DNA from: an uncultured Gammaproteobacteria bacterium
GTDB taxonomy: Bacteria > Patescibacteriota > Patescibacteriia > Magasanikbacterales > GCA-002688135
Direction: 5' to 3'
Assembly (NCBI GenBank): GCA_964536205.1
Contig: CAZHVT010000001.1
Span: forward strand, 5,944-69,943
DNA length: 64,000 nt
Of the stretch, positions 16,056-53,677 are shown piece after piece. The position numbers and the translations under genes were made by a program. The number at the start of each line of letters is the position of its first letter. The first letter of the stretch is position 1. A model generated the notes under the pieces. It was not told the DNA's origin. It saw only the letters and a list, made by a program, of their open reading frames with translations, and did no database searches.

Positions 16056-17248
16056 AGTACATAGTTCAAGTTGGGAGAGAGCCGGCCCTAGCGGTTTCAG
16101 AGGTTCTCACACTCGCCGAAACATTTAATAAACAAGTTACCATGTCGTGGGTTCACGATTCTTTAGTTTGTTTTGAAGCGGATTCTGCGTGTGATTTTAT
16201 GACGACTGATCGACTTGGTGGTGCTTTGAAAGTTATTGAGCCTCTTGAATATGTTGATGATGTTCATACTGCGATAGTTGAGCATGTTTTGAAAACTGAA
16301 GGTAAAATTACGTTTGGGATTAGTTCGTGGATTGATGATGATCGACTAGCGCCGCAACACCTTTGTCCTGCAATTAAATCTGAATTGCGGGATCATGATC
16401 GTTCTGCGCGATTTATATTGCCAAAGAAAAAGCAGTTGGATGCTGCTGCAATTATTCATAGTGATATTTTGAAATCTGGTGGTGAGTTTCATATTATCCC
16501 GGAGGGTGACAAGATTTTGTTAGGACGATCGACGTCAGTCCATGATATAGATGCGTGGAGTACACGTGATTTTGAAAAGCCTGCACGCGATGCAAAACGT
16601 GGCATGTTGCCACCAAAGTTAGCGCGTACGATGGTGAATTTGAGTGGGATTTCTTCAGGAACTATTTTGGATCCGTTTTGTGGGACAGGAACTGTTTCTA
16701 TGGAAGCGTCGTTATTAGGATTTGATGGGATTGCGTCTGATGCAGACCCAGAAGCTATTGAAGCAACAAAACAGAATATTGAGTGGCTTTCCTCTGTCAT
16801 CCCGAATATGATTGTCATTCCCGCGAAGGCGGGAACCCATGTAGAAATACTGCAAAGTGATGCGCGCGACGTAGCACGCCGAATTAAAAAGGATGTTGAT
16901 GCAATTGTTACAGAACCATTTCTCGGCAATCCAAAAAAACTTACACATGCACAACGAGAAGAACATGCATTAGGAATTGCGGATTTGTATGCTGATGCTT
17001 TAAAAAATTGGACGAAATTTCTCGAAAAGGGAGCGAGGGTTGTGATGGTAATTCCATTGTACGTAACAAAAAAGGGATTAGTGGCAATCCCGATTCATGA
17101 TAAAATTTCTACATTAGGTTACGAAGTTATCGAGCCGCCGACTAAACCTATTTCGCTCGATGACCAACTCTCTCCTGCTGGTAATCTCCTCTACGGCCGC
17201 GATGATCAACGCGTGCTCCGCGAAATTATTTTGTTACGCAGAAATTAA
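16052..17248 (+). CDS. THUMP-domain RNA (guanine-N2)-methyltransferase-like protein
   Basis: DPFCGTGT SAM motif and TEPFLGNP motif IV-like segment typical of RlmL/Trm11-type N2-G methyltransferases; contains repeat R1 in-frame. Confidence 0.7.
   Translation: MKYIVQVGREPALAVSEVLTLAETFNKQVTMSWVHDSLVCFEADSACDFMTTDRLGGALKVIEPLEYVDDVHTAIVEHVLKTEGKITFGISSWIDDDRLAPQHLCPAIKSELRDHDRSARFILPKKKQLDAAAIIHSDILKSGGEFHIIPEGDKILLGRSTSVHDIDAWSTRDFEKPARDAKRGMLPPKLARTMVNLSGISSGTILDPFCGTGTVSMEASLLGFDGIASDADPEAIEATKQNIEWLSSVIPNMIVIPAKAGTHVEILQSDARDVARRIKKDVDAIVTEPFLGNPKKLTHAQREEHALGIADLYADALKNWTKFLEKGARVVMVIPLYVTKKGLVAIPIHDKISTLGYEVIEPPTKPISLDDQLSPAGNLLYGRDDQRVLREIILLRRN
16813..16838 (+). repeat. R1 hairpin repeat copy a (TGTCATTCCCGCGAAGGCGGGAACCC)
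   Basis: One of five near-identical about 26-bp elements; this one lies inside the THUMP methyltransferase gene and is translated as IVIPAKAGT. Confidence 0.7.
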
Positions 17249-18189
17249 GCAACCTCGTCAATATCTTCTGGTTTCACTGGTTTTCTCTCTTGCGTTGCTG
17301 CATGCGGATCTATAGTATCTTTTTGAACCGCTTCCAGTGATGGAAGTGTTTTTTCTGTGCCGTCATATTCTACTGTATCATCGATAGGATTTACTGCAGC
17401 TACCGTTTCTCCTGTCTCATCAACCTCACCTGTAATTGCCAAAAGATCTCGTGCAACTGTGTCGTCAGTTGGAGATACATGCTCAAGCGTAGGCTCTTCT
17501 CCTGTGAACCTTTCCGTCCCTGCTCTTTCTGACCGTCTTGAAAATGTTGGTTGGGTCACCGCTAGTTTTAATGTTTCCTCTGGATCACTGTGGGTTTCTA
17601 ACATTCGCTGTTCTAATATTGCAAACTCTCCCATTAATCCCTCGATCTTTGCTCGAAAGGCTTTCAGTTTTTCTGGTTCAACACTTTTACCTTCCAGAAT
17701 TTCATCACTTGTTTCAGCTCGTGCATCATCAATTGATTCCTCATACTCATTAGTAACCTCTTCAAATTCTGTTTTCCACTGTCTAAATACTCCTTCTAAT
17801 TGAGCATCTCTATCCTCAAGTACATTTGCTGCAAAAGTCATTTCATCATCACTCTCATCTGATACCACATGCAATTCACCATACTTTTCCTTTATATATG
17901 TTGCTCTTATGACCAACAAAGAAACAAGCCTGCTCGCCTTCACTTGTAAGCGTGCAATATCGACCAACGATATTTTGTCCTTTGCGAGAACCTCCTCAAC
18001 ATCATTAAACTGCGTTTCCCTTTCAGTAAACGTACTCTCAATTAATTCTTCAATGCGCTCAATTTTCTTTTTTCGTTCTTCGGGTGAATCCTGCTCCACC
18101 TCTTCTGGTTGTTCTTCTTTCGGTTCAGAAAACTCGACCTCTTTCTTATTTCTTCTTGCTAGATACTCATCTATTTTTTTAAAAAATCC
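17245..18189 (-). CDS. highly acidic coiled-coil protein, function unknown
   Basis: Start placed at MGFFKK 5 nt after GGAGG; about 30% Asp+Glu. Confidence 0.5.
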   Translation of the reverse strand, partial: GFFKKIDEYLARRNKKEVEFSEPKEEQPEEVEQDSPEERKKKIERIEELIESTFTERETQFNDVEEVLAKDKISLVDIARLQVKASRLVSLLVIRATYIKEKYGELHVVSDESDDEMTFAANVLEDRDAQLEGVFRQWKTEFEEVTNEYEESIDDARAETSDEILEGKSVEPEKLKAFRAKIEGLMGEFAILEQRMLETHSDPEETLKLAVTQPTFSRRSERAGTERFTGEEPTLEHVSPTDDTVARDLLAITGEVDETGETVAAVNPIDDTVEYDGTEKTLPSLEAVQKDTIDPHAATQERKPVKPEDIDEVA

Positions 18190-18193
18190 CATA

Positions 18194-19252: not shown

Positions 19253-19319
19253 AGATGAGGATTGTAGCATTTTTGCTCGTCTACATCAAGATTCTAAAAA
19301 CGCCCTTGCGGGCGATGTT

Positions 19320-19775
19320 TTAGAGTTTTTTGAGTGCTTCGATTTGGGAGTCTTCGAGGTGTATTACTGGGCGTTTTGATTGTACTTCTGCAATTGCTTC
19401 GTCCACCGACATCCCTGTGCTGATGAGATATGCTGCGACTAATGTTGGTGCGCGACCATGCCCGTTTTTGCAATGTACATATACTTTTTCATTTTGTCCG
19501 ACCAGCGATGCAATCATATCTACACCTGATTTGATTTGTGATGGATTTGGCGGCGTGTGATCTACTGTCGGAAGCCAGAGAAATAAATCAACTCCGTATG
19601 GCGCATCCAAATGTTCTTTTTCTAGTGAGATGTCAGATTTTACTCCGTTTGCTAATAACTCATCTTTGAAATGATCTACGCAACATGCGTTTGTTCCGAG
19701 ATAAATGTGGTCTGTGATTTGATTGTACTCAAAATCTGGCTGGCCTTCTTCGTGTGCTTTCATATATATTGTCAT
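19320..19775 (-). CDS. dual-specificity protein phosphatase
   Basis: VHCKNGHGRAPTLVAAYL = HCx2Gx2R(S/T) catalytic loop; the start codon is embedded in repeat R1 copy b. Confidence 0.7.
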   Translation of the reverse strand: MTIYMKAHEEGQPDFEYNQITDHIYLGTNACCVDHFKDELLANGVKSDISLEKEHLDAPYGVDLFLWLPTVDHTPPNPSQIKSGVDMIASLVGQNEKVYVHCKNGHGRAPTLVAAYLISTGMSVDEAIAEVQSKRPVIHLEDSQIEALKKL

Positions 19776-19796
19776 TCCCGCGAAGGCGGGGACCCA
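19771..19796 (+). repeat. R1 hairpin repeat copy b
   Basis: TGTCATTCCCGCGAAGGCGGGGACCC; overlaps the phosphatase start codon. Confidence 0.7.
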
Positions 19797-22700
19797 TTAA
19801 ATAACTTCCTCCTCCTCAATTATCTCCTCTACGACCTCTTCGACTGGGGTCACCTCTTCTTGTGTTTCTTCTTCTATTATTTCTTCTAGGATCTCTTGAG
19901 CTGTTTGTTCTTCTGCTTCTTCTGCTTCTTCGATTACTTCCTCAAAAACTTCTTCTACTACCTCTTCTTCGGCGGTTTCTTCATTTTCCTCTAAAGATGA
20001 AACAGGATTTGTTTCTTCTTCCTGTTCGATTATTTCCTCTTCAATCACCGCTTCTTCAACATCTACAACTGTTTCCTCTACAACTTCTTCAGTAACATCC
20101 TCAATTACCTCTTCTTGTGCTTCTTGCTCTAGCTCCTCAAATGTTGGGATTGGTTCTTCTGAAATGATTTCTTCTGGAGTTTCCGCTGCTTGTGCTGGTT
20201 CGCCAAATGGAATTGGTGGAGCTTGCGCTGCTTCGATTTCTGTTTCAACTCCTTCTTTTTGAACGATCCACCAATCGAGTAATGTGTATTCTGAAACTGG
20301 TGAGGACAGCATGATCGTGAATGATTCTCCTGGAATTTTTTCAGAAATATGGTAGCTTCTTCCTGCAAGATTGGTGAGGAAACTTACGAAAACTTTTGAA
20401 TTATCCTGAATTGCTGGCGTGATAACTTTCAGCGAATCATTTCCTGTTTCAATCACCCCCTCACCGATCGTTGGGGCATTGAGGTTTTGCTCAACAACGT
20501 ATTCTTCCGATGTAATTCGTTTTACTGAAATCTTACCATCTTGATCAATCGCCCATGTTCCTCGAGTTGAAGTAATTGCTGTTGCCAACATATCAGAGCT
20601 ACTTGGTGACGATAAACTTCCATCTGAATTTTCTCCAATTGAAAGTGTTGTGCTTGATGTCATCATGCCGGCTCGAACCAATGTTTTGATATTTCCCATT
20701 CCTTCATCATGACTTTCCAGAGCTGTTGCAACAACAATTGCGTTGATTCCTATTGCAAGACTTGAATCGTATTTCATGAGATATCCTGGTTCTGATGCGG
20801 TCACCAACATATCTCCAACCTTAATTGCACCATTTTCATCTGATACATTTGTGTTTACCAGTCCGGCCAATGCGAGCGCTGCGCGATTCTCACCGCGAGC
20901 CCCCATCACAAAGGCAGCAGTGTTTGAAATGATACCTGCTGCAGATGATGAATATGCTTCATCAACTTTTTTGAATTTTCCTTCATGTTCTGGGTCTGGC
21001 ATTACTACATCTCCAGACTCTACAAATTGTCCAGGCGCAAGATCAACATACTCAGCAAGATCACCAATTCCGAAGTCTGTTGAGTTTGCTATGAAACTGT
21101 TTTTTGCGTATACATTTCCGCCTGCACCGACATGGAATTTCGGTGTTCCTCCATTTGAAACTGTGAGTAATGTTCGATCGAGTGCATCTGTCGATGATGT
21201 GATGGAATTTTCCGTGTCAAAGTGAAATGCTGTTGCACCTTCAGCATCTTGAATCCCAGAGAAAAATGTTGTTGTTGTGAAATTACCAGATGGATCGATT
21301 GCATAACCGATTTCAAGCAATGTCCTGTTTACGCTTCCGTCTTCTGTGGTTGTACTGAATGATACGAGGTTTCCTTGGTCTATATCTGTTCCAGTAACCG
21401 CAAATCCAAATGCTGAAGTTCCGTCCGAGTTTGTTGGCTGCGATACAAGTGACCCAGCACTTGAAAAGAATATCGCATTCCCCGCCATTGCATCTGTTGT
21501 ATCGACGGTAAGCGTACCATTTACGAATATTCCTCCTGCAACCTGAAGTTTTGCTCCTTCTGCAGTCGTATTAAGTGTTGTTGAGCTAATTCCTACGAAT
21601 CCCCCTCCAGTTGTGTCCGCAATAATAATCGGTGCATTTCCAGTAGATCCATGTCCGATGTGTGCAGTTCCAGATGTGTATAATTCTGTCCATGCATTTC
21701 CTGGTTCACCTAAGTCGCGTGTTCCGTTTGGAATGACATCTGATGTGATAACACCTTGGATGGTGATTCCATCTCCTCCGTCACTTGAGCCAAGTATGAC
21801 TGCACCTTCTGCTGAAAATACTTGATTGTTTGTGACAGTTAATGCGCTGAAATATCCTGGGCCACCAAAGAATGTTCCAGAAGCATAAATGTCATCCAAT
21901 GCATTGTTTACTGCTCCAATATCGTATGTGTTGTGTGTGCCAAGTGATACTTCGGAATTCAGTGTGATTCCAGCATTGAACGTAGAGGTTGCATTTACTG
22001 TGAGTGTGTCTTGAGATGACGCTGTGAATGTATCACCGATGATCATATTTCCTCCAAAATATGATTCGTAACCATCCCCTAATATTAACCCGTAATTCAT
22101 GTATCCACCTCCAAAAATAGTACTGGTTGCAATCGCCACTCCATTTTGAGCACCGTTTTGAATTCTAACTACTGGAAGCCCACTTGCCCCCCCATTGGTA
22201 GCTCCTCCGAGGTGTGCTGCTCCAGATGCATATAACCCTTGAAATGATAATGATTGTGATCCTAAATCTGTCGAGGCTGTTGCTTTAGGAAGAAGGTTCT
22301 GGCCGAATCTTGCTATTCCATTAAATGTAATGTTATCTCCGGATCCATCTCCTAGCGTGACATGACTGTTGAATGAAACTTGGTCTCTTACAGAAGTTGT
22401 TGAGTAGATGAGTAATGAGTCCCCTGCAGAATTGTCACCAATGATTACGCGCTCATCGAATTGTATGTCTGATTCAAATGTAGACGATGAGTGGACTACT
22501 AAATTATTTCCACTATTTGTTCCTATTACCACATCCCCTTCAGCTGTTAATGCTGATTCAAACGATGATGTTGAATGCACTCGTAAACTATTGCTATTGT
22601 TGGTTCCAATATAAAATTCTCCATCAATTCCAGCATTGTTTGCAAAAGTTGTTGATGCGTTTACGGTAACCAAGTCAGTCCCCGCACTTCCGATCGCATC

Positions 22701-24368: not shown

Positions 24369-24572
24369 AATCTCCTTCGCGGAATATTATTTCCGGTTAC
24401 TTATTATACCATGAAAAGATATATTTTTTTATACTTTTTATGATGATTTCTGTGTATAAATTCTACATAAACTTTTTCTAAATTTAGGATGAAATAAATA
24501 TTTTAACTTGGAAAGAAAAAAACGGCCCTGGCCGTTTTTCTCATAGAACACTGAACTTAGAACTTGAAACAT

Positions 24573-29452: not shown

Positions 29453-29458
29453 GTATTA

Positions 29459-30106: not shown

Positions 30107-30116
30107 ATCGACTGAA

Positions 30117-30899: not shown

Positions 30900-30900
30900 G

Positions 30901-31006
30901 TGTTGAAGGTACTTCAACAGGTATTTAAAGCTAAATTTAGTATAACAAAGTGTGAAATAAAGTCAAATTGTTGAAGGTACTTCAACACGAATTACTCTAA
31001 ATTTAG
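30901..31006. promoter_or_regulatory. Duplicated composite operator: TGTTGAA-N5-TTCAACA (30901-30919, 30969-30987), each followed after about 10 bp by the perfect palindrome CTAAATTTAG (30931-30940, 30997-31006)
   Basis: Inverted and direct repeats read directly; located at and upstream of the TrmB-like gene start. Confidence 0.55.
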
Positions 31007-33146: not shown

Positions 33147-33213
33147 AATATCTCCGATTTGTAGTTTCGCACACATGTTTTGTGTCTCATTCGGTGAGCG
33201 AAGCGAAATCCCG

Positions 33214-33241
33214 CGTTACGCTTTACTCGTTACGCTTTACT
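33214..33241 (+). repeat. Tandem 14-mer CGTTACGCTTTACT x2 immediately upstream of rpsT
   Basis: Direct repeat; shares the TTACGCTTTAC core with the palindrome at 1961-2090. Confidence 0.5.
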
Positions 33242-33249
33242 CATAAATT

Positions 33250-35535: not shown

Positions 35536-35539
35536 AACT

Positions 35540-36247
35540 TTAACGAAAGAAAAGTTCTTGTGGATGAACATCTACAGTCGGTAGATTCCACCACCAATGC
35601 AGAAGCGGCTTCCATCGCGAAGCGCTGGGTGCGAAATACACGGAGTTATCTTGACTTGGAATCGCAGGAAATGCACCCCCGATGAAGTATGAAAAATGCT
35701 CATCCATTCCGAATTCATCAATCAAAGAAACATCGGTGTTGTTCTTGCGGGCAATGCAGAATATACAGTATAACCACGTGCATGTTACGCTACGTTTGTG
35801 AGTTATCTTTGCCCATAATTTGCAGTTTGTTGAATCGCACTCTTGGCATCGATAATTTTCCGGGATTGGCTTTTCAGGAAGTACCTCTAATTCTGACAAT
35901 CCTTCCCACAATCCTACATGAGCGGAGGTGAGACAGCTCTTACGTACCCACGAATCAGCAATGCACAGTCTTCCGCCCGTGAAGTACATGCATTTCACTG
36001 CGCGCGTGTATCCACGATCTTCACATATTTTCTCATTTTCTTGCGTTGTCGTGCTCTTGGTGACTATCTGCCTTGTTCCCACAATACACTCAGTGCATGC
36101 GTACTGCGTGTATCTCATCGGCAGTGACAATGATGATGGTCGGCCTATATAACCCGAAGCTTCCTTCCACCACAATCTACATTTACGAGCGCCACATGTC
36201 TGACAACTGTGTCCCATCATTGATTCCAATAGTACTATATCTGACAT
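35540..36247 (-). CDS. Cys-rich HPQELFF-tail family protein A (two zinc-ribbon-like modules)
   Basis: CQTCGARKCRLW...CTEC and CQECDSTNCKLW...CIFC; FPAIP; HWWWNLP; ends HPQELFFR. Confidence 0.7.
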   Translation of the reverse strand: MSDIVLLESMMGHSCQTCGARKCRLWWKEASGYIGRPSSLSLPMRYTQYACTECIVGTRQIVTKSTTTQENEKICEDRGYTRAVKCMYFTGGRLCIADSWVRKSCLTSAHVGLWEGLSELEVLPEKPIPENYRCQECDSTNCKLWAKITHKRSVTCTWLYCIFCIARKNNTDVSLIDEFGMDEHFSYFIGGAFPAIPSQDNSVYFAPSASRWKPLLHWWWNLPTVDVHPQELFFR

Positions 36248-36255
36248 GTTCCCCC

Positions 36256-36615
36256 CTATTGAAAGAATTTTTCTTGCGGATGGATTTCTTCAGGAGCGTC
36301 CTTCGTGGGTATGTTCAGATGAGCAAATGCTTTCGCGAGCTGTACTGGCAGCTCCCACTCCTCATCCTCTTCTTCATTCCATGGATGTACGAAGGTAAAC
36401 CTACAACTATGCATTTTTGCAGCAGAATTAAGCTTTTTACCCAAGAGGCACTTATGATCTGCTGTTATGTATGGACAAGTTATTGGTTTTACAACTGTGC
36501 TTGCATCACCGTGCTTCTCAATCCGAACATACAAATTTACAGGTTTCACTAGAATCGCAGCTCCATTAGCCCCAACTCCAACACAATCAACACGAATATC
36601 AAGTGTGTCTTCCAT
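36256..36615 (-). CDS. divergent HPQEKFF-tail family protein (lacks canonical zinc ribbon)
   Basis: Ends ...NIPTKDAPEEIHPQEKFFQ; start placed at MEDTLD directly after the upstream gene stop, with GGAGGAAAC RBS. Confidence 0.55.
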   Translation of the reverse strand: MEDTLDIRVDCVGVGANGAAILVKPVNLYVRIEKHGDASTVVKPITCPYITADHKCLLGKKLNSAAKMHSCRFTFVHPWNEEEDEEWELPVQLAKAFAHLNIPTKDAPEEIHPQEKFFQ

Positions 36616-36623
36616 GTTTCCTC

Positions 36624-37305
36624 CTACTGAAAGAATAGTTCTTGTGGATGGATGCGTTGCGTTTGGAGGTTGCGCCACCATATAACGCGATCCTCTGGCG
36701 CGGCGGTGAATTTCCAGTAGCCTGTGCCTTCTAAGTTTGGCACTGCAGGCATATACGAACCAATCCAATCTGTTTTGACGTTTTCGCGAGCAAAGAGAGG
36801 ATTTACTATTTTCCCCTGATCATCAATTTTATTTACATCGATTCCAACATCTTTTGCCACACATTCTGCACAAAATGTCGATGTGCCGTTTTGCTTTCGC
36901 CACAACTTACAGTCATCTGCAGCACATTCGATACACCAATAATTTTTTGGTGTACCAATTGAGGATGTATCAATGTTCGGTCGTGCTTTTGTTTCCAGTG
37001 CACACCACCATTTCACGGCGTCGTCTGGAGCCCCTGCATATTCCCAGTAAGCCGAATTGTCAGGAAGCGGAATAGCGGCATAATACCACCCAATCCGATC
37101 ATTTTTGAGACCGTCGTCATCTGTAAACACTCCCGAATCATCCATGTCGCTGATGTTTTTTTCTTCTCTTCGAGAAGCACATGGTGCGCACACAAGACCG
37201 TATGACGGTACTGAGAAGTTTCTGAACAATTTACAGTTTGTGGAATTGCACTCGCGACAATAGTAATCAGCAGGAATCTCGTTTGTACTATAATCCAACA
37301 TCATC
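36624..37305 (-). CDS. Cys-rich HPQELFF-tail family protein B/C (two modules)
   Basis: CRECNSTNCKLF...CAPC and CIECAADDCKLW...CAEC; AAIP/PAVP; WWCALE/WWRNLQ; ends IHPQELFFQ; AGGAGG RBS before ATGATG. Confidence 0.7.
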
Positions 37306-37312
37306 GTACCTC

Positions 37313-38029
37313 CTATTGAAAGAATAATTCTTGTGGATGTGATGACTCTACAGGGAGTCGCTTCCACCAATCGAGCATTTCTTTGGTGATTTGTTCATTC
37401 CGCGCAGTGCCATGATTGGACGTCGCTTGTGCAGATGGGATTGCTGGATCCCATCTCGACTCAGGCAGATATGGTTTTATGTATGGAATATCCACCCCTC
37501 TTGGATTTTCTTCAACATCCTCATGAGTCAGCAGCTTCACCTTCATTATGCATGCCTTGCAAGATAATTCAAGATTATCGCTTTCCCAAAGTTGCATTCC
37601 TGTCTGCTCGCACTCCAAGCATCTATACCATTCGGGAACCTCACTCGCTGTGTAATCGAATACATTTTCGTCTGCATCTTCTTCAGGCTCGATGATGCCT
37701 AGTTTCTGTAGCACTGGGATAATCTCTCCGGGTGGTTTCCAGCCGGGGTTTTGTTTTTTCGAATATAGATAGTCAAAAGACAATCGACAATAAACCCCCT
37801 TTCTCTCTGGATCACATGTTTGACTCATGACGAAACATCGTGAACCAGATTCCTCACGACCAAACATGCACTCTTCCACTCTGACACGTACGTCAGATTC
37901 TTTGCTCAGCTTTAGAATCCCTATACGTACACTAACCCCCGCCCCCTCTAAGACAGGCTGGCCTTCGAAATCATAGCCCTCACATACCACTCTGGTTATT
38001 ACATCAATTCTTCCTGTGTCCTTAGTCAT
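37313..38029 (-). CDS. Cys-rich HPQELFF-tail family protein D
   Basis: CLECEQTGMQLW...CKAC; DPAIP; DWWKRLP; ends SHPQELFFQ; own TTGACA-N17-TACATT promoter. Confidence 0.7.
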   Translation of the reverse strand: MTKDTGRIDVITRVVCEGYDFEGQPVLEGAGVSVRIGILKLSKESDVRVRVEECMFGREESGSRCFVMSQTCDPERKGVYCRLSFDYLYSKKQNPGWKPPGEIIPVLQKLGIIEPEEDADENVFDYTASEVPEWYRCLECEQTGMQLWESDNLELSCKACIMKVKLLTHEDVEENPRGVDIPYIKPYLPESRWDPAIPSAQATSNHGTARNEQITKEMLDWWKRLPVESSHPQELFFQ

Positions 38030-38127
38030 AGCCGTCTTCTCCTTTTGTCAAAGAGCCTTTGAAATGTACGTTATTTTTTGTGGTTTGTCAATAGTTTAGA
38101 GAAAATAAAACCCCACTTACCGCGGGG

Positions 38128-38487
38128 CTATCTGAAGAATTTTTCTTGTGGATGCATGGGGTGTGTTGGGATATTCCTCCACCATAAACTCTCTTGCGCG
38201 CTGTTTGGTGTGTCTGTATACCATCCTCCGTCCTTGTTCCGTCTCGGGATTGCGGGGATGAACCAGCCTATGTGATTTGTTCTACCGGGGTGTTCTCGAT
38301 AGTGCGGATCAGAAATTGTTCCATCATCGTCTATTTCTTCGGTTGTTATTTTGACCCTTCTGGCGACGCATGCAACACAGTATGTGGTGTCTATCCTTTC
38401 TGTTTTCCATAACTTGCATTGAGATGCACCACACAAACTACACATGTAAGAGTCGGGTATATTCTGTGAGCTGTAGTCAAACGACAT
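38128..38487 (-). CDS. Cys-rich HPQEKFF-tail family protein E
   Basis: CSLCGASQCKLW...CVAC; IPAIP; LWWRNIP; ends MHPQEKFFR; own TTGACA-N17-TACATT promoter and terminator ccccgcggtaagtgggg. Confidence 0.7.
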   Translation of the reverse strand: MSFDYSSQNIPDSYMCSLCGASQCKLWKTERIDTTYCVACVARRVKITTEEIDDDGTISDPHYREHPGRTNHIGWFIPAIPRRNKDGGWYTDTPNSAQESLWWRNIPTHPMHPQEKFFR

Positions 38488-38619
38488 GCGCACCCCCATC
38501 TGAATAATTCTTTTTGTGGCCGGATCTCTTTTTTGGTTCTTGTTTTAATTGGAGGCCATCTCCCTATATTCCAAAGAGTTATTGTAATGTACGGTGCTGT
38601 GATGTACTTGTCAATAATT

Positions 38620-38644
38620 AAAAACCTCAACCGCAGTTGAGGAA
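38620..38644 (-). terminator. Terminator hairpin cctcaaccGCAGttgagg + T-run on the minus strand
   Basis: Near-identical copy of the hairpin at 35518-35535. Confidence 0.55.
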
Positions 38645-38675
38645 TTTTATTGAATTAATGCTCCTTGTGAATGTT

Positions 38676-39008
38676 TTAGGGTACATTCGGCAAGCTCATC
38701 CACCATTGTGCTTGTGATTTTGTGTGGTGTCCTGTTGCCACATATTTCTCGTGTGAATCTAGTATGGCTGGGTAGTAGGCTCCGAGATTCCAGATTCTAC
38801 ACTCTGTATGATTCAGAGTGCATATACGTGTCCCATCTTCCCCTATATCCCTCAGACTTATCCCGAAATAATTAGTCAGACACACAATGCATTGCAACCC
38901 CTTGAAGCTTGGGTTCTTCCACAACTTACATTGTTTTGCGCCACATACTGCACACAGATAAAAGTCGGGTATCGACCTTGGTGTATCTTCTTGTAATGCG
39001 TCGTCCAT
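38676..39008 (-). CDS. Cys-rich family protein F (tail-less: ends WWMSLPNVP)
   Basis: CAVCGAKQCKLW...CIVC; YYPAIL; WWMSLP; promoter TTGACA-N17-TATTAT and GGGGGG RBS upstream. Confidence 0.65.
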   Translation of the reverse strand: MDDALQEDTPRSIPDFYLCAVCGAKQCKLWKNPSFKGLQCIVCLTNYFGISLRDIGEDGTRICTLNHTECRIWNLGAYYPAILDSHEKYVATGHHTKSQAQWWMSLPNVP

Positions 39009-39075
39009 TTTGACCCCCCGCATGTATTAATAAAAGAACAGCACATAATATCAAATATACTTGAATATGTCAACC

Positions 39076-39348
39076 CTACACCAGGTCATTTCCACCTTTG
39101 TTCCAAGGGTTGCAGCGGAGGATTCTAAAGAGTGTTTTTATTGATCCTTTTGTTAGGCCGTATTTTTTTATTGATTTGTAACTGTACTGCGAGCATGTTG
39201 GATTGAATTTGCAGTATCCGTGTGGGAAGAATTTTTTGAGCGGGCCGTGATCTGGAGAGAGTGTTTTTTGATAGAGGCGTACTAAAAACATTCCAATATG
39301 GCGGGGAATGTGTAGGATGTTCATACTGGCGTTTGTGCTAATCCTCAC
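39076..39348 (-). CDS. yidD: membrane protein insertion efficiency factor YidD
   Basis: YQKTLSP...CKFNPTCSQYSY...ILRCNPWNKGGNDLV matches the YidD/haemolytic-domain signature. Confidence 0.75.
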   Translation of the reverse strand: MRISTNASMNILHIPRHIGMFLVRLYQKTLSPDHGPLKKFFPHGYCKFNPTCSQYSYKSIKKYGLTKGSIKTLFRILRCNPWNKGGNDLV

Positions 39349-39377
39349 GAGATCCTTCGACTTCGCTCAGGATGACG

Positions 39378-39761
39378 CTATCGCGTCAGTTTTGAGATGA
39401 GCTCCTTCATGTTTTCCATCACATCTTTATATGAAGCTGCGCGCTCGGGAGGCGTTTTTTGACCCTCTTCTTTCGGTTTGGTGTATGTGGTAGATGCTGA
39501 TCGTGCTTGAATAACAACATCAAAACCTTTTGGAACTGTTTCCAAAATTTCTCGCAATGATTCGCGAACACGACGTTTGATTAAATTTCGAACTGTGGCT
39601 CGTTTTGCAACTTTTGTACTTACAACTACTGCGAAGCGAGTTTCTTCTGCATTTGTTTTCAAAACTTGATACCGAAAAAGCGGCGTTATTACGCGCCGCC
39701 CTTTTTTAAATACTTTTTTAATGTCTCGTTCCGCCCGAAGTCTGTTTTGTTTGGGCAACAT
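39378..39761 (-). CDS. rnpA: ribonuclease P protein component
   Basis: MLPKQNRLRAERDIKKVFKKGRR... basic 127-aa protein, conserved RnpA N-terminus; adjacent to rpmH. Confidence 0.85.
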   Translation of the reverse strand: MLPKQNRLRAERDIKKVFKKGRRVITPLFRYQVLKTNAEETRFAVVVSTKVAKRATVRNLIKRRVRESLREILETVPKGFDVVIQARSASTTYTKPKEEGQKTPPERAASYKDVMENMKELISKLTR

Positions 39762-39767
39762 AGTAAT

Positions 39768-39905
39768 TTATACAGCAAGAGACTTTCTTCCTTTGGCACG
39801 ACGTCTTTTCAAAATGTTACGTCCTCCTGGAGAATTTGTTCGAGCTCGAAAACCGTGCTTTCGTGCACGTTTTCTTACTTTTGGTTGATATGTTCGCTTA
39901 GGCAT
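39768..39905 (-). CDS. rpmH: 50S ribosomal protein L34
   Basis: [45 protein letters not shown] is near-consensus L34; upstream part of the listed ORF is not translated. Confidence 0.9.
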
Positions 39906-39959
39906 ATGTTTATTGGGCAGTAGGTTGCAGGGAGCAGGCAGTAGTTTTGCTTCGCTCAA

Positions 39960-40285
39960 TGCTTTATTTGTGGGGGTATACTAACATTGTGGATTTTGTT
40001 TGGCAAGAGGTTGGGATGCACCGCGACATTTTGAGTATGTGTGGATAAGGGTTGACAGAATCCACAGGTCACGATAGGCTTAAATTCTAGCTATTGTTAG
40101 TGAATTAATATATTTTTAAAAATATATTCACACTTATTTTTTACATTTATCCACACTATCCACAAGTTTTCCACATGGTACACACATATCGTAAACAGTT
40201 GACCCTTTTCAAAGAATATTTTGTGATGTATCATCAGAAGACTTGTACTTTTATCGGGTGTGATACCCCATGACCTCCCACTATT
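39960..40285. promoter_or_regulatory. oriC DnaA-box region upstream of dnaA (TGTGGATTT 39989-39997, TGTGGATAAG 40041-40050, ATCCACA 40071-40077, TTATCCACA 40147-40155, TATCCACA 40157-40164, TTTCCACA 40167-40176) with an AT-rich tract at 40100-40140
   Basis: DnaA-box consensus matches plus the canonical rpmH | dnaA-dnaN synteny and the strand switch at this point. Confidence 0.65.
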
Positions 40286-41683
40286 ATGATGACGAATGAA
40301 TCAATCTGGCAAGCAGTGCTTGCAGAATTGGAGCTAGAGCTCTCTAAAGCGAACTTTACGACGTGGTTTCGTAATACTTCATTATCTTTAATGGAGAATA
40401 ATGAGGTTTCAGTGTATGTCCCTAATAACTTCACCAAATCATGGTTGGAGAAAAAGTATCACACATCTATATTGAAAACCCTTGAACAGGTTCTTGGAGC
40501 TCGTATTCAAAAGGTTGCGTATTGCGTTGAGAAAAATCCACAAAAATCCCAAGCTTCTTTTATCACACAAGGTTTCACCTTCAATCACGATTCTGCAGAC
40601 AATTCACTTACTGTTGGCCCACAGGCTCCTGTGGTACAGCAAAATCCAAATGCGCGCGGCTTACACCCGCGTTATGTTTTTGAAAATTTTATTGTGAGTA
40701 AAAGTAATGAGTTGGCACATGCCGCGGCGCAGGCTGTGGTATCCAACCCCGGTGCTTCTTATAACCCCCTCTTTATATACGGCGGAGTTGGGCTTGGAAA
40801 AACTCATTTAATGCAAGCGATCGGACACTCTGTTTTGCAACAAAATCAAGAGGCGAAAGTTTTGTATGTTTCTTGCGAGACATTTACGAATGATTTCATT
40901 CACGCAGTTCGCAATGGTTTGGCAAAAGAATTTAAAGATCGTTATCGCAATGTTGATGTATTGATTGTTGATGATATTCAATTTATTACTGGAAAAGAGG
41001 GGACGCAGGAAGAGTTTTTTCACACGTTTAATGCGCTTCACCAACAGGATAAGCAGATTATTATTTCATCAGATCGTCCACCAAAAGCAATTCCGGCATT
41101 GGAGCAGCGATTACTTTCTCGTTTTGAATGGGGGATGATTGCTGATATTTCATTTCCAGATGTTGAAACACGTGTGGCTATTTTGGAAGCGCGTTGCTCA
41201 GAGCGTGGTATTAAAGTTCCATCAGATGTATTGCACACTATTGCAAATCACATCCAAAATAATATTCGTGAATTAGAAGGAGCTTTGAATAAAATTATTG
41301 CGACGATTGAAATGCACAAGAGTGAGCCTACGTCTGAAATGGTACAGCAAGTTTTAGGAAGTATTAAAGCATCACGCACCATTCACTCTGTATCACCTAA
41401 GGAATTGATTAGAGTGGTTTCTGAATACTTTGATGTAGGTATTGATGATATGGTTGGAAAAAGCCGTGAGAAACGTATTGCATTCCCACGACAGATTATT
41501 ATGTATTTGTTGCGTAAGGAGATGAAAAACTCATATCCTTCGATTGGAGCGGAGTTGGGTGGACGAGATCATACAACTGCGATTCATGCGTATGAGAAGA
41601 TTCGTAAGGCTGTTGAGGTTGATAATAAACTCAAAGCCGACATACAGTATATTAAAGAACGATTGTATACGCCTGCGGCGTAG
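40286..41683 (+). CDS. dnaA: chromosomal replication initiator DnaA
   Basis: AAA+ Walker A GGVGLGKTHL, sensor motifs, C-terminal DNA-binding helix-turn-helix; 465 aa. Confidence 0.95.
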   Translation: MMTNESIWQAVLAELELELSKANFTTWFRNTSLSLMENNEVSVYVPNNFTKSWLEKKYHTSILKTLEQVLGARIQKVAYCVEKNPQKSQASFITQGFTFNHDSADNSLTVGPQAPVVQQNPNARGLHPRYVFENFIVSKSNELAHAAAQAVVSNPGASYNPLFIYGGVGLGKTHLMQAIGHSVLQQNQEAKVLYVSCETFTNDFIHAVRNGLAKEFKDRYRNVDVLIVDDIQFITGKEGTQEEFFHTFNALHQQDKQIIISSDRPPKAIPALEQRLLSRFEWGMIADISFPDVETRVAILEARCSERGIKVPSDVLHTIANHIQNNIRELEGALNKIIATIEMHKSEPTSEMVQQVLGSIKASRTIHSVSPKELIRVVSEYFDVGIDDMVGKSREKRIAFPRQIIMYLLRKEMKNSYPSIGAELGGRDHTTAIHAYEKIRKAVEVDNKLKADIQYIKERLYTPAA

Positions 41684-41702
41684 TGAGTTGGTGAGACTAT
41701 TT

Positions 41703-41767
41703 CGTTGTACGTTCTACGTTGTACGTTCTAGGGTGATTTCTAGAATGTAGGACGTAGAACGTAGAAC
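41703..41767. repeat. Imperfect long palindrome built from direct repeats (CGTTGTACGTTCTA)x2 ... TAGAATGTAGGACGTAGAACGTAGAAC just downstream of dnaA
   Basis: Read directly; same architecture class as 1961-2090. Confidence 0.55.
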
Positions 41768-42064
41768 TTTTCCACTCTTTAATCACATGTTGGTAGGGTG
41801 TGAATTCGGTCGAACAACTGGTGTATAAACATTCAGTTGTGCACAGGAAAATCTAGAACGTTTTGTTCATACACATTTCGTACACATAGCATTTCACAGT
41901 CAGTGTGTATAAATTATCGTCTAAATTTAAAACAAAAATATAGTTGTTAGACTTATCCCGTGCCTTATTATTACTATTAGTTTAATTTATATAAAAATAT
42001 ATAATATAGCGTTTCAGAAAATGAGAATCTAGGAGGAACTTACACACACTAACCCAAAGAGGAT

Positions 42065-43189
42065 ATGAAGTTCTCATGCACAAAGGAGAATTTACTCAAA
42101 GCATTAACCTGTACAGGATATGTATCAGGTAAACAGGTGAACTTACCGATATTGCAAAATGTGTTGATATCGATGAAGAATACCGAAACTAAGATTGTGT
42201 CGACTAATTTGGAGATTGCTGTTTCAGCGCAGTTGCGAGCAAAAGTTGAGACTGATGGAGAATTTACAGTTCCAGCTCGAGTATTTTTGGAGTATATGGC
42301 GAATGTTCCAGGTGATCGTGTTGATATTGAATTGCATGAATCTGGATTGGGTGTTCAGATGGGGCATTCAAAAACTGTTTTGAAGGGGATGGAAGCTACG
42401 GAATTTCCGTTGATTCCAGGAATTGAGGGGGATGTAGTATTTGAGTTAGATGCGAAAGTTTTATTGAATGCATTGCATCAGGTTTTGTTTGCTGCATCTA
42501 AGAGTGATGTGCGTCCTGAATTATCTGGAGTTTTATTTCATTGTAATCCACCCGAAGGAAAACAAAGTTTGGTGTTGGCGGCGACAGATAGTTTTCGATT
42601 AGCTGAAAAGAAAATTACGTTTAAGAGTGGGGGAACAGAGGAAAAGCGAGTGATTGTTCCATCTCGTACAGTTTCCGAATTGGTTCGCATTATAAATGTT
42701 TCGACGAAAGAAATTGATAGTGTAACGATGCGTGTTTCTGATCATCAGATTGTGTTTGTGTGTGGTGGTGTGCAAATTACTTCGCGATTGACTGATGGGA
42801 ATTATCCGAACTATGAACATATTATCCCCAAGGAATCGAATGTTGAGATGAGTGCGTTGAAGGATGATGTGGTGAAGCAGGTGAAGGGTGCGAGTTTATT
42901 TACGACAAAGGGAATTGGTGCGGTGCGGATGAAATTTGTGGCAGCAGAAAATAAAATTAATATTACATCGACGAATGCGCAGACGGGTGAGCACGCGGGG
43001 AGTGTTGTTGCTGAAGGGAAGGGTGATGAGGTTGAGATGTATTTGAATCATCGATATATTTTGGATGGGTTGAGTGTGATTGATAATGAGCGAGTGAAAT
43101 TTTCCGCGCAATCTACTGATGCGCCGTTGGTGATGCGTCCGCAGATGGATAAGGACTATCTTTACATGATAATGCCTATTAAGCAGTAA
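42065..43189 (+). CDS. dnaN: DNA polymerase III beta sliding clamp
   Basis: 374 aa, three-domain clamp; synteny with dnaA. Confidence 0.9.
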   Translation: MKFSCTKENLLKALTCTGYVSGKQVNLPILQNVLISMKNTETKIVSTNLEIAVSAQLRAKVETDGEFTVPARVFLEYMANVPGDRVDIELHESGLGVQMGHSKTVLKGMEATEFPLIPGIEGDVVFELDAKVLLNALHQVLFAASKSDVRPELSGVLFHCNPPEGKQSLVLAATDSFRLAEKKITFKSGGTEEKRVIVPSRTVSELVRIINVSTKEIDSVTMRVSDHQIVFVCGGVQITSRLTDGNYPNYEHIIPKESNVEMSALKDDVVKQVKGASLFTTKGIGAVRMKFVAAENKINITSTNAQTGEHAGSVVAEGKGDEVEMYLNHRYILDGLSVIDNERVKFSAQSTDAPLVMRPQMDKDYLYMIMPIKQ

Positions 43190-43446
43190 CCGCTCGCGAG
43201 GAGGGCGATATATGTTTGCTTCATAAAACATTTGCTCGACGTACGCCTGTACGACTCGCTGCATGTTTTACTCCAGCTGCGCATATCTCATCCCACCTCA
43301 CTTCGCTAGCTTCGTGGATAGCTTTCAGAATTTTCTTATTCGAGTTATTGTTTAATAGCCCTCATTTCGAAAATTCTTCCAAACACGCACATTTCATCTC
43401 AATATACTTTGCTGACTTCGTGGTAGGTTATTGTGCTTGCATGTAC

Positions 43447-43472
43447 TGTCATTCCCGCGAAGGTGGGAATTC
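43447..43472 (+). repeat. R1 hairpin repeat copy c
   Basis: TGTCATTCCCGCGAAGGTGGGAATTC in the dnaN-downstream intergenic region. Confidence 0.65.
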
Positions 43473-43570
43473 AGAAAATTCAAGAGTAAAAGTAAAAACC
43501 AACGATTTTAAGCGTATCATTCTGGGGTGAGGTATGAATGATAGAATATGGTTTTATAAACATGGATCCC

Positions 43571-43596
43571 GTACGACTACGGGATGACAGGTACAA
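43571..43596 (+). repeat. R2 hairpin repeat (CATGGATCCCGTACGACTACGGGATG); second copy at 53646-53671
   Basis: 26-bp element with internal hairpin cccgtaCGACtacggg, followed by GATGACA resembling the R1 3' end. Confidence 0.55.
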
Positions 43597-43666
43597 CACT
43601 TTGTAGAATGTTACATTGTATAAATTTAAATTGAATTAAAAAACCGCTGGCGTGCCGGCGGTTTTA

Positions 43667-44353
43667 CTATTGGAAGAATTTTTCTTGTGGGTGTTGTTCT
43701 GTCGAGTCGGGGAGTGATTCCCACCATGCGATCATTGAGCCTGTGATGGTGTGTCTGAGTTCAAAATATTCGCGTGTCATGTGGGTTGGTATTGCAGCTC
43801 GAAAAAAACGTTTGCTAAAGCTCAATTCAACTTTTGGTACACGTATTTCGTTTAGATTTTTATGGGGCGTATGTATTTTCAGCACATTGACTTGTATATC
43901 ACTCATACACTTATAACACAGTAACATTCCGAAGTTGTTTATCCATAGCTTACATGTCGTTGCTTCACACTCATCACATTTGTAGTGAAGAGGAATATCA
44001 ATTCCCTCATGGTGTTGTGGAATTTTGTCGTCTAGTACATTTTCCGTTGTTGGTTGTACCGACAAACTTTTCCACCAACTCCAACCTTTTTCAGTTAATG
44101 AGGTGTATGGTGTGTATAGTTGGGCACGTGAATTTTTCGGTACTGCTGGGTGGAATGGTCCGATTTTATCATTATTAGTAGTCAGATCTTCGAAGAAATT
44201 ATCACGAATGCAATTCCAGCATTTTAATGCTACGTCATCCATGTGATCTGTTCGTGTAAACCACAATCTGCAGTTTGTTGCATTACATTTTTTACAGAGG
44301 TACCACGGTGGGCACTCTTTGAGCTTCAGATTGAATACTCCGAATTTTGCCAT
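43667..44353 (-). CDS. Cys-rich HPQEKFF-tail family protein G/H (two modules)
   Basis: CKKCNATNCRLW...CWNC and CDECEATTCKLW...CYKC; HPAVP/AAIP; WSWWKSL/AWWESLP; ends QHPQEKFFQ; AAAAGGAG RBS. Confidence 0.7.
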   Translation of the reverse strand: MAKFGVFNLKLKECPPWYLCKKCNATNCRLWFTRTDHMDDVALKCWNCIRDNFFEDLTTNNDKIGPFHPAVPKNSRAQLYTPYTSLTEKGWSWWKSLSVQPTTENVLDDKIPQHHEGIDIPLHYKCDECEATTCKLWINNFGMLLCYKCMSDIQVNVLKIHTPHKNLNEIRVPKVELSFSKRFFRAAIPTHMTREYFELRHTITGSMIAWWESLPDSTEQHPQEKFFQ

Positions 44354-44461
44354 GCCATCTCCTTTTGTTTGTAATGAACGGTTTTTAGATTAGTGGATTT
44401 TTTGGGTTCTGTCAAGGTGTTGACTTGTTATGAAATAAAAAAACCACCGGAGTGTCGGTGG

Positions 44462-44827
44462 TTAGTGAAAGAACAATTCTTGTGGGTGGAGTTCTGGTGC
44501 TTTTTCTTGTGCGTGCCACCAGGTCATCATTTCTTGTGTGATGTCGTCGATCCACGGTGTGTGTTGTTGCTTGCAATCAGTTCTTTTGCATTTTGTTGGG
44601 ATTGCTGGTTCGAACCAACTCATAGTAATCAACTCTACCCCATGTGCGTTTTTTTCTGTTTCGATTCGTGACTTTTCGTCTAGCTCGTCGTTATGTAAGC
44701 ATGTTCCGCATATGAATTCTGGGTTGATTAAGATACCGGAACTTCGCCATAGCTGTACATAATCATTTCCACATCTTGCGCATATATAATCTTGTCTTTG
44801 TGGACAAAATGTTCTGGTGTGTTTCAT
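44462..44827 (-). CDS. Cys-rich HPQELFF-tail family protein I
   Basis: CARCGNDYVQLW...CGTC; EPAIP; TWWHAQE; ends LHPQELFFH. Confidence 0.7.
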   Translation of the reverse strand: MKHTRTFCPQRQDYICARCGNDYVQLWRSSGILINPEFICGTCLHNDELDEKSRIETEKNAHGVELITMSWFEPAIPTKCKRTDCKQQHTPWIDDITQEMMTWWHAQEKAPELHPQELFFH

Positions 44828-44871
44828 GTGTATCTCCTCAAGATCTAGCTCACTTTATAGCGTGAGAGATT

Positions 44872-45615
44872 TTACTGAAAGAACAATTCTTGTGGGTGAA
44901 TTTCTGGTTCTTCTGGGAGGTTCATCCACCACTCGTTCATGACATAATGCATGGAGAATTGATTTACCATATATGTTGGGTCGACCATGCTGGGTACTGC
45001 GTTTAAATAATTGCCTCGCATAAAGTAGTAATGATCCCTACCTTGTGATGCAGTCTGCATTTTATCTGAATTTATGAGATTGAGACACGCTGTACAGATG
45101 AGTGCTGGTTTTATTTTGTCTGACGATAGGTTTGGTTGTCATAACCTACAGTCAGTTTGTTTGCATTGATTACAGACATAATTTTCTGGCACAGTTCTTC
45201 CATAATAGTCGAACCATGACTCCTTTTTTTTCATGGGCGGTGGTTTTTCGGGGAGGTTGGCCCACCATTCCAACATATCATCAGTGAAGTTACTTGATCG
45301 TTCTGATTGTTTTGTGTCTTGTGCGATAGGGATTGCTGGTATGAATGCACCTTTTACGGGATAGATGAGACCTTTTACGTTTCTAAATTTAGCATCCCGT
45401 CCTGCTATTTCATTATGGGGTAAGCATGTGGTGCACCACAATATTGATCTGTATAGTGTTGCTCTTGACCTTCGCCATAGGCGACAATTTGTTATTCCGC
45501 ACATGTTGCAGACATAACCATCCGGCACTACTTTTTCGAAATAGTTGAGCATGATTTTACCTTTTGGGTTGTGAAAGGACTTATGGATAATAGTGTTTTC
45601 TTGTTGGATTGTCAA
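44872..45615 (-). pseudogene. Two-module Cys-rich family gene (K/J) interrupted by an in-frame TGA exactly at the conserved Trp of the second CxxCx5C(K/R)LW motif
   Basis: 45139..45615 ends ...YVCNQCKQTDCRL-TGA; the same frame continues QPNLSSDKIKPALICTACL...WWMNLPEEPEIHPQELFFQ (44872..45060). Paralogs have W (TGG) at this position. Confidence 0.6.
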
Positions 45616-46463: not shown

Positions 46464-46493
46464 GTGTTTTGGTCCACGAATAGTATAAATCTT

Positions 46494-46641
46494 TTACAAA
46501 TCTACAAATGCTTTTCTAGCAACAACTTGACCAACTGTCATTGCGAGCATTTTAGCGAAGCAATCTCATCCACAGATTGCTTCGTAAGCTCGCAATGACA
46601 GTCTACCACCAGCGTGCTCGAAGAGAATTTGTAGATTTGTA
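46494..46641. repeat. Nested large palindrome: outer arms ACAAATCTACAAA / TTTGTAGATTTGT; inner 14-bp arms CTGTCATTGCGAGC / GCTCGCAATGACAG; innermost GAAGCAATCT / AGATTGCTTC; loop CATCCACA
   Basis: Read directly in the LysR / inositol-phosphate-synthase divergent intergenic region. Confidence 0.6.
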
Positions 46642-46760
46642 TTCAATTTGTATTATTCGTGGGTGTAGTGTGGATAAGCTGTGTTTATAGTGGATAAGTA
46701 TCATTAATTTGGATTATATATGAGTATGGTATATAGTTCAAGCGTTCTTTACTTATTTAC

Positions 46761-46786
46761 TGGATTCCCACATTCGTGGGAATGAC
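46761..46786 (-). repeat. R1 hairpin repeat copy d (reverse orientation; GGGAATGACA faces the downstream gene start)
   Basis: GGATTCCCACATTCGTGGGAATGACA immediately 5' of the RBS AAAGGAGAG. Confidence 0.65.
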
Positions 46787-46802
46787 AAGAAAGGAGAGTT
46801 TT

Positions 46803-47942: not shown

Positions 47943-47983
47943 ATAAAAACCTCCGAGAAACCTCGGAGGTATTTTTTATTTCT

Positions 47984-50800: not shown

Positions 50801-51023
50801 GCTTTTGGGGTTGTTGTACTGAAACGATTGTAGAATTATATTGTTACGTTTGATGCTTATTTATACCTTTTTATTGAGTTTAGAGCAATAGAATTGTGTT
50901 GTAAATGAGTTACATCAGATGAAAAATTAATCCACATCAGACCATTGACTTTTAGGCTGTTTTGTGCTATACTACTGGCGTCTCTGAGAGGTTTCTTAGA
51001 GGCTTTTTTATTAGGAAATTGAT

Positions 51024-51049
51024 GGGTTCCCGCCTTTGTGGGAATGACA
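51024..51049 (-). repeat. R1 hairpin repeat copy e (reverse orientation, overlaps candidate start codons)
   Basis: GGGTTCCCGCCTTTGTGGGAATGACA. Confidence 0.65.
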
Positions 51050-53671: not shown

Positions 53672-53677
53672 GTAATT

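Follow-up and report, generated by a model that had tools for sequence, protein, structure and literature searches.

The 64,000-nt stretch of DNA analysed here (contig CAZHVT010000001.1, positions 5,944 to 69,943 of the forward strand; hereafter the window) comes from a member of the Patescibacteria (candidate phyla radiation, CPR) and carries five copies of a short, oriented hairpin repeat, R1, which by its sequence is a member, in a new phylum-level host, of a class of repeats published in 2025. The class includes the Neisseria Transformation Sequence (NTS), the 28-nt CGTCATTCCCGCGMAVGCGGGAATCYRG, which contains dRS3 (ATTCCCN8GGGAAT) and is bound, solely as single-stranded DNA (ssDNA) and on one strand only, by SsnA, a 94-aa single-domain GIY-YIG nuclease that cuts a few nucleotides upstream of the NTS; ssn genes in various bacterial phyla have Ssn-related motifs (SRM) on their flanks (Chenal et al., Nat Commun 2025, PMC11893778). 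Sites that fold as ssDNA, are bound on one strand and are cut by Ssn a few nucleotides upstream of their head are known from Neisseria and Wolbachia. We consider it likely, taking the reading as a whole, that R1 is a local family of the NTS/SRM class, that three other hairpin types of the region (R2 to R4) probably belong to the same class, and that the repeats are linked to a nuclease. The assignment of the host to the Patescibacteria fits the sources of the homologues of its methyltransferase and PBP1A, which are Magasanikbacteria, Uhrbacteria, Falkowbacteria and bacteria listed as 'Patescibacteria group'. The window belongs to a metagenome scaffold of 211 kb.

All five R1 copies reported in the initial annotation were located within 1–2 bases of the coordinates given there (copy b was off by one, and the first copy of R2 is shifted by ~6 nt). 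Searching the window with the 23-mer TGTCATTCCCGCGAAGGCGGGAA at ≤3 mismatches yields exactly these five matches, at 16813, 19770 and 43447 on the plus strand and at 46765 and 51027 on the minus strand, against 0.00 expected from 100 dinucleotide-preserving shuffles. Likeness among the copies reaches ~28–30 nt, (A)TTGTCATTCCCRCRAAKGYGGGRAYYCAK, and the head TGTCAT is invariant in all five. Copy a (16813–16840, plus strand; TGTCATTCCCGCGAAGGCGGGAACCCAT) lies in frame inside the gene for a Trm11/RlmL-like methyltransferase; copy b (19770–19797, plus strand) sits between the stop codon of a 1523-aa gene (TAA 19797–19799, minus strand) and the start of a phosphatase gene; copy c (43447–43474, plus strand) is in a 480-bp intergenic region downstream of dnaN; copy d (46760–46787, minus strand; TGTCATTCCCACGAATGTGGGAATCCAG) ends 15 nt upstream of the inositol-phosphate synthase ATG at 46803; and copy e (51022–51049, minus strand) ends 9 nt upstream of the ATG at 51059 of a 3D-domain protein. 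Extension of the contig by 8.8 kb to the left and 8.5 kb to the right of the window, to 81 kb in all, adds two copies (seven in total), one ~2.5 kb to the left and abutting a gene start, the other ~220 nt beyond the right end (~64219, minus strand), 4 nt past the stop codon of an H+-PPase gene. Folded as ssDNA, copies a, c and d give a 4-nt loop closed by a stem of 7–8 bp (−7.4 to −8.4 kcal/mol, z −3.3 to −3.9), the stem of copy d being preserved by a compensatory G-C to A-T change; the hairpins of copies b and e, with a mismatched pair in the stem, are weaker (z about −1.5). In an Rfam scan, only three tRNAs reached the gathering score.

R1 (TGTCATTCCCGCGAAGGCGGGAAYCCAK) and the NTS are near-identical and have in common an oriented head, an 8-bp stem and a 4-nt loop, that is, the SRM-type layout, in which a stem-loop able to fold as ssDNA is preceded by a conserved, non-palindromic head. 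The dRS3 motif is exact in copies c and d; its last six bases are GGGAAC in a and e and GGGGAC in b. The C right after the palindrome, the base most critical for binding (PMC11893778), is present in every copy except c; the pattern used to search for SRM, HGTCWYN(0-2)YYVSBRHN(0-5)WNVSBRGN(0-2)RNCYNB, built by hand from 29 genomes, fits copies a and b. As with the NTS and SRM, the repeats are multi-copy, mainly intergenic and rarely intragenic, and tail-to-tail inverted pairs occur among them. The initial annotation had called small palindromes that become part of coding sequence unusual, which overstates the case, given that the family was described in 2025 and that ~2% of N. meningitidis NTS copies are intragenic (PMC11893778). 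Its suggestion that they may be protein-binding sites would fit, by analogy, the published binding of SsnA to the NTS (PMC11893778).

The same sequence is widespread. The exact R1 23-mer was found at no fewer than 120 genome loci, which among the matches listed belong to Bacteroidota, Zixibacteria, Planctomycetota, Nitrospirota, Chloroflexota, Cyanobacteria, Spirochaetota and several Patescibacteria, as well as to Alpha-, Beta-, Gamma- and Deltaproteobacteria, Actinomycetes and Rickettsia/Tisiphia. A 27-mer that includes the GGGAACCCA tail of the window's lineage was found at 120 or more metagenome loci, and the 23-mer also occurs in 52 viral contigs. A small GIY-YIG ORF is present in 15 of the ~240 genome and metagenome loci fetched by R1 patterns, at a distance of 16–141 nt from the repeat in 11 of these 15, and most of the repeat-adjacent GIY-YIG proteins are of a 96–97-aa type. 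This adjacency in other genomes independently reproduces the Ssn association reported in PMC11893778.

On the contig of the window, a candidate nuclease is encoded ~6.7 kb past the window's right end (L307 1636–1878): an 80-aa protein (MFFVYIAKCSDKTLYTGV...) whose only domain is GIY-YIG (Pfam PF01541). It is thus a small (<150 aa), single-domain GIY-YIG protein, and its GIY..YxG and later motifs align with those of GIY-YIG proteins of solved structure. It shares 39% identity with a 96-aa GIY-YIG protein encoded beside an NTS (pairwise E 5e-11), and a profile of nine NTS-adjacent GIY-YIG proteins matched it, and nothing else, in the 81 kb (E 2.9e-13). Inside the window, tblastn and profile searches found no GIY-YIG gene, a weak tblastn match at 63241–63432 being an unrelated 255-aa ORF; searches of the small GIY-YIG proteins with NCBIfam and PADLOC gave no informative match. 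Homologues 65–79% identical to the 80-aa protein occur across many Patescibacteria. Two R2 hairpins in inverted, tail-to-tail arrangement lie 65–140 nt upstream of its gene (L307 1494–1878, or about 70654–71038 in window numbering). Because this pair is directly upstream, as reported for ssn genes, R2 rather than R1 is, by analogy, the best candidate site for the 80-aa protein.

The orientation of R1 provides a further lead. The seven copies of the 81 kb are on the plus strand at −2497, 16813, 19770 and 43447 and on the minus strand at 46765, 51027 and 64219; dnaA and dnaN are at 40.3–43.2 kb, and GC skew is strongly positive from ~40 kb onwards. For a fixed origin, the two-sided probability of so perfect a strand split of seven copies is ~0.016. 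If the origin is at dnaA/dnaN, the strand that Ssn could cut is the leading-strand template on both sides, and hence off the strand most exposed as ssDNA. We regard a replication-linked orientation bias as a lead, not a result. As a mechanism, we envisage that the 80-aa nuclease, or another one in the genome, would bind or cut R1 and R2 as ssDNA during replication, repair or DNA uptake, and that this relationship between nuclease and repeat would drive or constrain the spread and orientation of the repeats. The copies survive only where they do little harm, in short spacers at gene boundaries and in one disordered loop in frame, and on this reading the effects on neighbouring genes, upstream in-frame ATGs and the insertion of a 9-residue loop, are side effects.

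Several observations weigh against the reading set out so far. The copies differ from the NTS by 3 (a and c), 4 (b and d) or 5 mismatches (e), with T instead of C as the first base in all five, so that none falls within the ≤1 mismatch by which a strict NTS is recognised in PMC11893778; copies c, d and e, like R2 to R4, are outside the published SRM pattern, and copy c has a T (GGGAATTCAG) at the position of the binding-critical C. The Ssn family is defined by cd10448 (GIY-YIG_unchar_3) as the top match in CDD, or by a blastp match to N. meningitidis SsnA that spans 75% of its length at E<1e-10; the closest solved relatives of the 80-aa protein are the UPF0213 proteins BH0048 (1zg2, E 3e-15) and EF2693, and a nuclease of the type that accompanies R1 elsewhere was not found in the 81 kb. 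Homologues 71–75% identical to it in two other Patescibacteria have no flanking hairpins, one of them lying in a housekeeping operon between a methyltransferase gene and greA. The loci examined for this (L308, L309 and L310) have none beside the gene, and these genomes hold other TGTCAT-stem-ATCC hairpins elsewhere. Since homologues occur without such hairpins, R2 could stand beside the 80-aa gene by coincidence, and R2 itself was not found elsewhere in 249 loci and the viral collection. The strand polarity rests on seven copies, and the support from GC skew, taken as a proxy for replication direction at pooled loci, is weak and inconsistent (41 of 64 genome loci negative, p 0.03; no effect in metagenomes; ambiguous in viruses).

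The history of R1 in relatives is consistent with recent movement. By these comparisons of sequence, R1 was gained, and possibly lost, inside a clade whose proteins are 72–86% identical, as follows from a methyltransferase insert that is present at 86% but not at ≤74% identity, from empty sites b and d, and from extra copies in the relative L125. At site b, 8 nt separate the stop codon of the large upstream gene from the phosphatase start in L129, compared with a 33-nt spacer filled by R1 in the window; site d is empty in L302 and L303, the relatives with empty b and d sites being at 72–80% identity. The regions of copies c and e are rearranged or repeat-free in relatives: at site c, the next gene in L302 follows directly after dnaN, and at site e, R1 is absent from the intergenic region of L305. 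No target duplication is clearly readable between filled and empty sites at 72–80% divergence. In L125, two extra R1 copies lie between lspA and the methyltransferase gene, which overlap in the window. We also observed that a ~95-bp unit carrying R1 is tandemly duplicated there (L125 3560–3760) and that there are three copies of the 14 nt with which the methyltransferase gene begins (ATGAARTAYATAGT), the window having no such insert; this duplicated unit may bear on how the repeats spread.

Copy a offers a view of an insertion within a gene. Its host gene (16052–17248, plus strand) encodes a 398-aa class I methyltransferase (Pfam UPF0020/RMKL-like), homologues of which are named tRNA G10 N-methylase Trm11 in their sources. 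As described in the initial annotation, the copy is translated in frame: IVIPAKAGT corresponds to I254–T262, and the 28-nt copy encodes V255–H263. The 86%-identical orthologue in L125 carries the same insert (VIPAKAGIH); in the 74% and 72% orthologues, and in every more distant one, 10–13 residues are missing at this position. The expectation that orthologues lack the insert was thus borne out at ≤74% identity. The initial annotation had further held that orthologues with the peptide but without any repeat family in their genomes would make the match ordinary coding sequence; these more distant orthologues do not carry the peptide, and the annotation is not refuted on this count. In the AlphaFold2 model of the methyltransferase (mean pLDDT 90.6), the R1 peptide forms a predicted loop between helix 233–252 and strand 264–268 of the Rossmann fold, and the sole segment with pLDDT<50, residues 257–261, is within it. 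The insert is tolerated, as judged from this model, which is confident except for one loop, at the insert. Constraint at the DNA level was not evident for copy a: 27 of its 28 nt are identical between the window and L125 (82.8% over the whole gene), but 5.7% of 28-nt windows equal this, and a third-position test was not significant. A second, truncated head, TGTCATCCCG (16795–16804, plus strand), lies 8 nt upstream of copy a and is translated as SVIP. It is common to the window and L125, and part of it may be ancestral sequence, given that L127 has TCTGTTCA at the corresponding position.

Among the alternatives, the one that survives best, though we think it unlikely, is that these are structural elements akin to repetitive extragenic palindromes (REP) that act without a dedicated nuclease, in RNA or in DNA, as terminators, mRNA stabilisers or insulators at operon junctions, and that spread by recombination or slippage. 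Copy b, the copy next to the H+-PPase gene and R4 each lie at the end of a gene or at an operon junction, the score of one R2 copy is terminator-like, stems are kept by compensatory changes, and the tandem duplication in L125 includes a repeat. No T-run follows R1, however, and orientation relative to transcription is mixed (sense for a, c and the H+-PPase copy, antisense for b, d and e). Structure alone also leaves unexplained why 23–27 nt, including the unpaired head, are kept across phyla, and the association with small GIY-YIG genes would have no explanation.

A promoter, ribosome-binding-site (RBS) or start-codon function, in which the GGGAATGACA end of a mobile module would give initiation signals to the adjacent gene, had been proposed in the initial annotation and now appears very unlikely. 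In copies b, d and e, that end is indeed turned towards a gene, and in these copies and the R2 copy before polA an ATG inside the repeat is in frame with the gene it faces, with no stop codon in between (four of four in the window); ATGACA also resembles the −35 hexamer TTGACA. The repeat-internal ATG was chosen by some gene callers, giving a 151-aa phosphatase, an 884-aa PolA and a 310-aa gene product in L306. The N-termini of orthologues nevertheless place the conserved starts 9–21 nt downstream of the internal ATG. For the dual-specificity phosphatase, the conserved start (ATG 19761–19763, minus strand) is 12 nt past the R1 ATG at 19773–19775 (MKAHEEGQPDFE compared with MQAHEQGQPDFE in L129), and JGI gene calls use it for a 147-aa protein. 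The start of inositol-phosphate synthase at ATG 46803 is 21 nt past the repeat ATG (MSSKNINVAIVG compared with MSDKTINVAIVG and MSSQKIRVAIVG) and has its own AAGGAG 6 nt upstream, separate from copy d. That of the 3D-domain protein at ATG 51059 is 15 nt past it (MITDFLLQSAAKVLM compared with the orthologue N-terminus MLSSLIAQATAKALM), and that of PolA at ATG 53678 is 9 nt past it (MSDKKTLVLID compared with MASDKKTLVLID).

Across 109 junctions between repeat and gene in other genomes, there is no frame preference of the internal ATG (38, 37 and 34 for frames 0, 1 and 2), and we treat the four of four in the window as chance. Within this ATG, the A and T belong to the final two base pairs of the stem. 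A promoter scan of 43–54 kb returned 23 sigma-70-like sites, with 23.8 expected by chance, none of which overlaps a repeat, and with only 9–21 nt between repeat and start codon there is no room for a promoter and leader. The same genes function in relatives with empty sites, and copies a, c and ~64219 face no gene start. Of the mobile modules envisaged in the initial annotation, the recently moved small palindromes therefore stand, by virtue of filled and empty sites, and the promoter or RBS role finds no support. By comparison with orthologues, the repeats do not supply the start codons of their neighbours, and the in-frame ATGs are a side effect that misleads gene callers.

We give similarly little credence to the notion that R1 is an attachment or target site for a recombinase or transposase, comparable to dRS3 in relation to Neisseria filamentous prophages or to REPs and their transposases (RAYT). 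Reports of dRS3 as the target of a phage recombinase (PMC11893778), the 23-mer in viral contigs and the presence/absence differences between relatives, which look like mobility, would agree with it. Against this, the ORFs examined and the Pfam lists, which cover most of the 81 kb, contain no transposase, integrase or Y1-transposase domain, none of the copies is bordered by a prophage-like insertion, and the GTAG head of REP/RAYT systems is absent. That R1 is ordinary coding or intergenic sequence matching by chance has practically no probability, given zero matches expected in shuffles and orthologues that lack the peptide.

The NTS/SRM-class reading extends, probably, to the other hairpins, since R1 to R4 follow a common layout: GTC, a stem starting with AT, a loop, a return stem ending in AT, and then C or a CCAT/CCAG tail. 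Both R2 copies described in the initial annotation exist, although only the first (43560–43589, minus strand; TGTCATCCCGTAGTCGTACGGGATCCATGT) has the GTCAT head ascribed to them; the second (53645–53674, minus strand; TACCATTCCGTAGTCGTACGGAATCCATGT) has ACCAT and ends 3 nt before the polA ATG at 53678. A compensatory change in the stem, C-G to T-A, distinguishes the two, which have ssDNA z scores within −3.3 to −3.9 and share ~48–70 nt of flank. At the polA site, L302 has a degenerate homologous hairpin together with the conserved upstream flank. Within this flank (53600–53645), we noted that GGGTTGAGGTGGTAAGATTTG is kept in the 80% relative (L302 ~4440–4480) and resembles the flank of the other R2 copy (43520–43560). 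R2 and its flank, a unit of ~70 nt that matches no Rfam family, possibly form a regulatory leader.

R3 and R4 had been missed in the initial annotation. R3 (46536–46601) is an inverted, tail-to-tail pair of GTCATTGCGAGC..GAAGCAATC hairpins between the LysR and inositol-phosphate synthase genes. It is enclosed by 48-nt inverted arms (46474–46521 and 46615–46662) that are 81% complementary, giving a composite palindrome of ~190 bp (46474–46662) that looks like a miniature inverted-repeat transposable element (MITE). R3 is present in the 78% relative L303, and a hairpin of GTCATCCTGAGCG type takes its place in L302. Six unrelated loci also have hairpins of the R3 type, and at one of these loci the hairpin precedes a small GIY-YIG gene by 96 nt. 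R4 (39351–39377, minus strand; CGTCATCCTGAGCGAAGTCGAAGGATC) follows the stop codon TAG 39378–39380 directly. In relatives, R4-type hairpins are found at the lspA/methyltransferase junction (L127) and at the LysR/inositol-phosphate synthase junction (L302), and the identical R4 27-mer occurs three times in one viral contig (L311/L312).

Against the background of known systems, the closest comparison is that with NTS/SRM, to which R1 is tied by its sequence, by the same sequence beside small GIY-YIG genes in other genomes and by the hairpin-flanked GIY-YIG gene on the window's contig. The system described here differs in the mismatches of R1 to the NTS, in a host phylum absent from PMC11893778, in the density of R1 (~7 copies per 81 kb), in the lack of gene clusters surrounded by repeats, and in that the only nearby nuclease, of putative activity, is UPF0213-like and flanked by R2, not R1, and on one side. 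REPs and their bacterial interspersed mosaic elements (BIME) with RAYT, like the subterminal hairpins of IS200/IS605, are likewise short, oriented, imperfect palindromes with inverted pairs whose single-stranded hairpins are recognised by a small nuclease, and a replication-related strand bias is expected for them; R1 differs in its TGTCAT head in place of GTAG, in the absence of Y1_Tnp from all Pfam listings for the 81 kb, in a GIY-YIG partner class, and in a sequence that is shared across phyla and not species-specific.

Two further families deserve mention. Rickettsia palindromic elements (RPE) are palindromic, in-frame, translated insertions at permissive surface positions, of 100–150 bp and 30–50 residues; R1 adds ~9–13 residues, and the sequences are unrelated. 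Correia elements of Neisseria, of ~100–150 bp, come with TA target duplications, and promoter and RNase III effects are documented for them; the NIMEs of Neisseria are bounded by dRS3. They resemble R1 as small repeats at gene boundaries that are able to alter expression, but R1 shows no indication of promoter or RNase III activity.

Some other features of the window were noted in passing. The first 33 nt of a tRNA-Cys gene are duplicated exactly (52811–52843 and 53016–53048), and a JGI contig of the same genome lacks 52844–53015, a strain-level indel or an assembly difference; an element that integrated into the tRNA gene could have left this duplication as a scar. Runs of 6–7-nt units (GTAAAGC/TTACGC; GTTGTACGTTCTAC) form inverted repeats at 1953–2090, 33212–33244 and 41704–41767, one such run lying between dnaA and dnaN, and these could be origin-region or regulator-binding repeats. 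At 35540–45615, flanking dnaA–dnaN, at least seven paralogous minus-strand ORFs have conserved 3' ends and Cys-rich motifs; one gives a weak zinc-knuckle match, and none belongs to a Pfam family.

Our analysis places the NTS/SRM–Ssn repeat class in the candidate phyla radiation. Three things are particular to this case: an insertion into a protein loop that keeps the frame, sites whose filled and empty states date the gain, and R2 hairpins beside the gene of a UPF0213-type GIY-YIG protein. Filled and empty sites, including the loop insertion in a well-folded methyltransferase, help to work out how such repeats spread, but the chief value of the result is as a corrective for annotation, since the repeats create in-frame upstream ATGs and spurious peptides (VIPAKAGT, MDPRLRGND...). 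We know of no established function for UPF0213/YhbQ-type single-domain GIY-YIG proteins. That they form a second Ssn-like family of ssDNA-hairpin nucleases, with GTCAT hairpins of the R2 and R1 type as their sites, is a speculative proposal to which we assign a low probability. Were it true, activity of a UPF0213-type protein on ssDNA exposed in replication would explain the leading-strand-template polarity of the seven R1 copies, and the Ssn discovery of 2025 would extend to a different, near-universal protein family. Tiny genomes such as this one would then have a nuclease–repeat system acting on incoming or replicating ssDNA. Should the 80-aa protein prove to be the partner of the repeats, the range of programmable ssDNA nucleases would grow.

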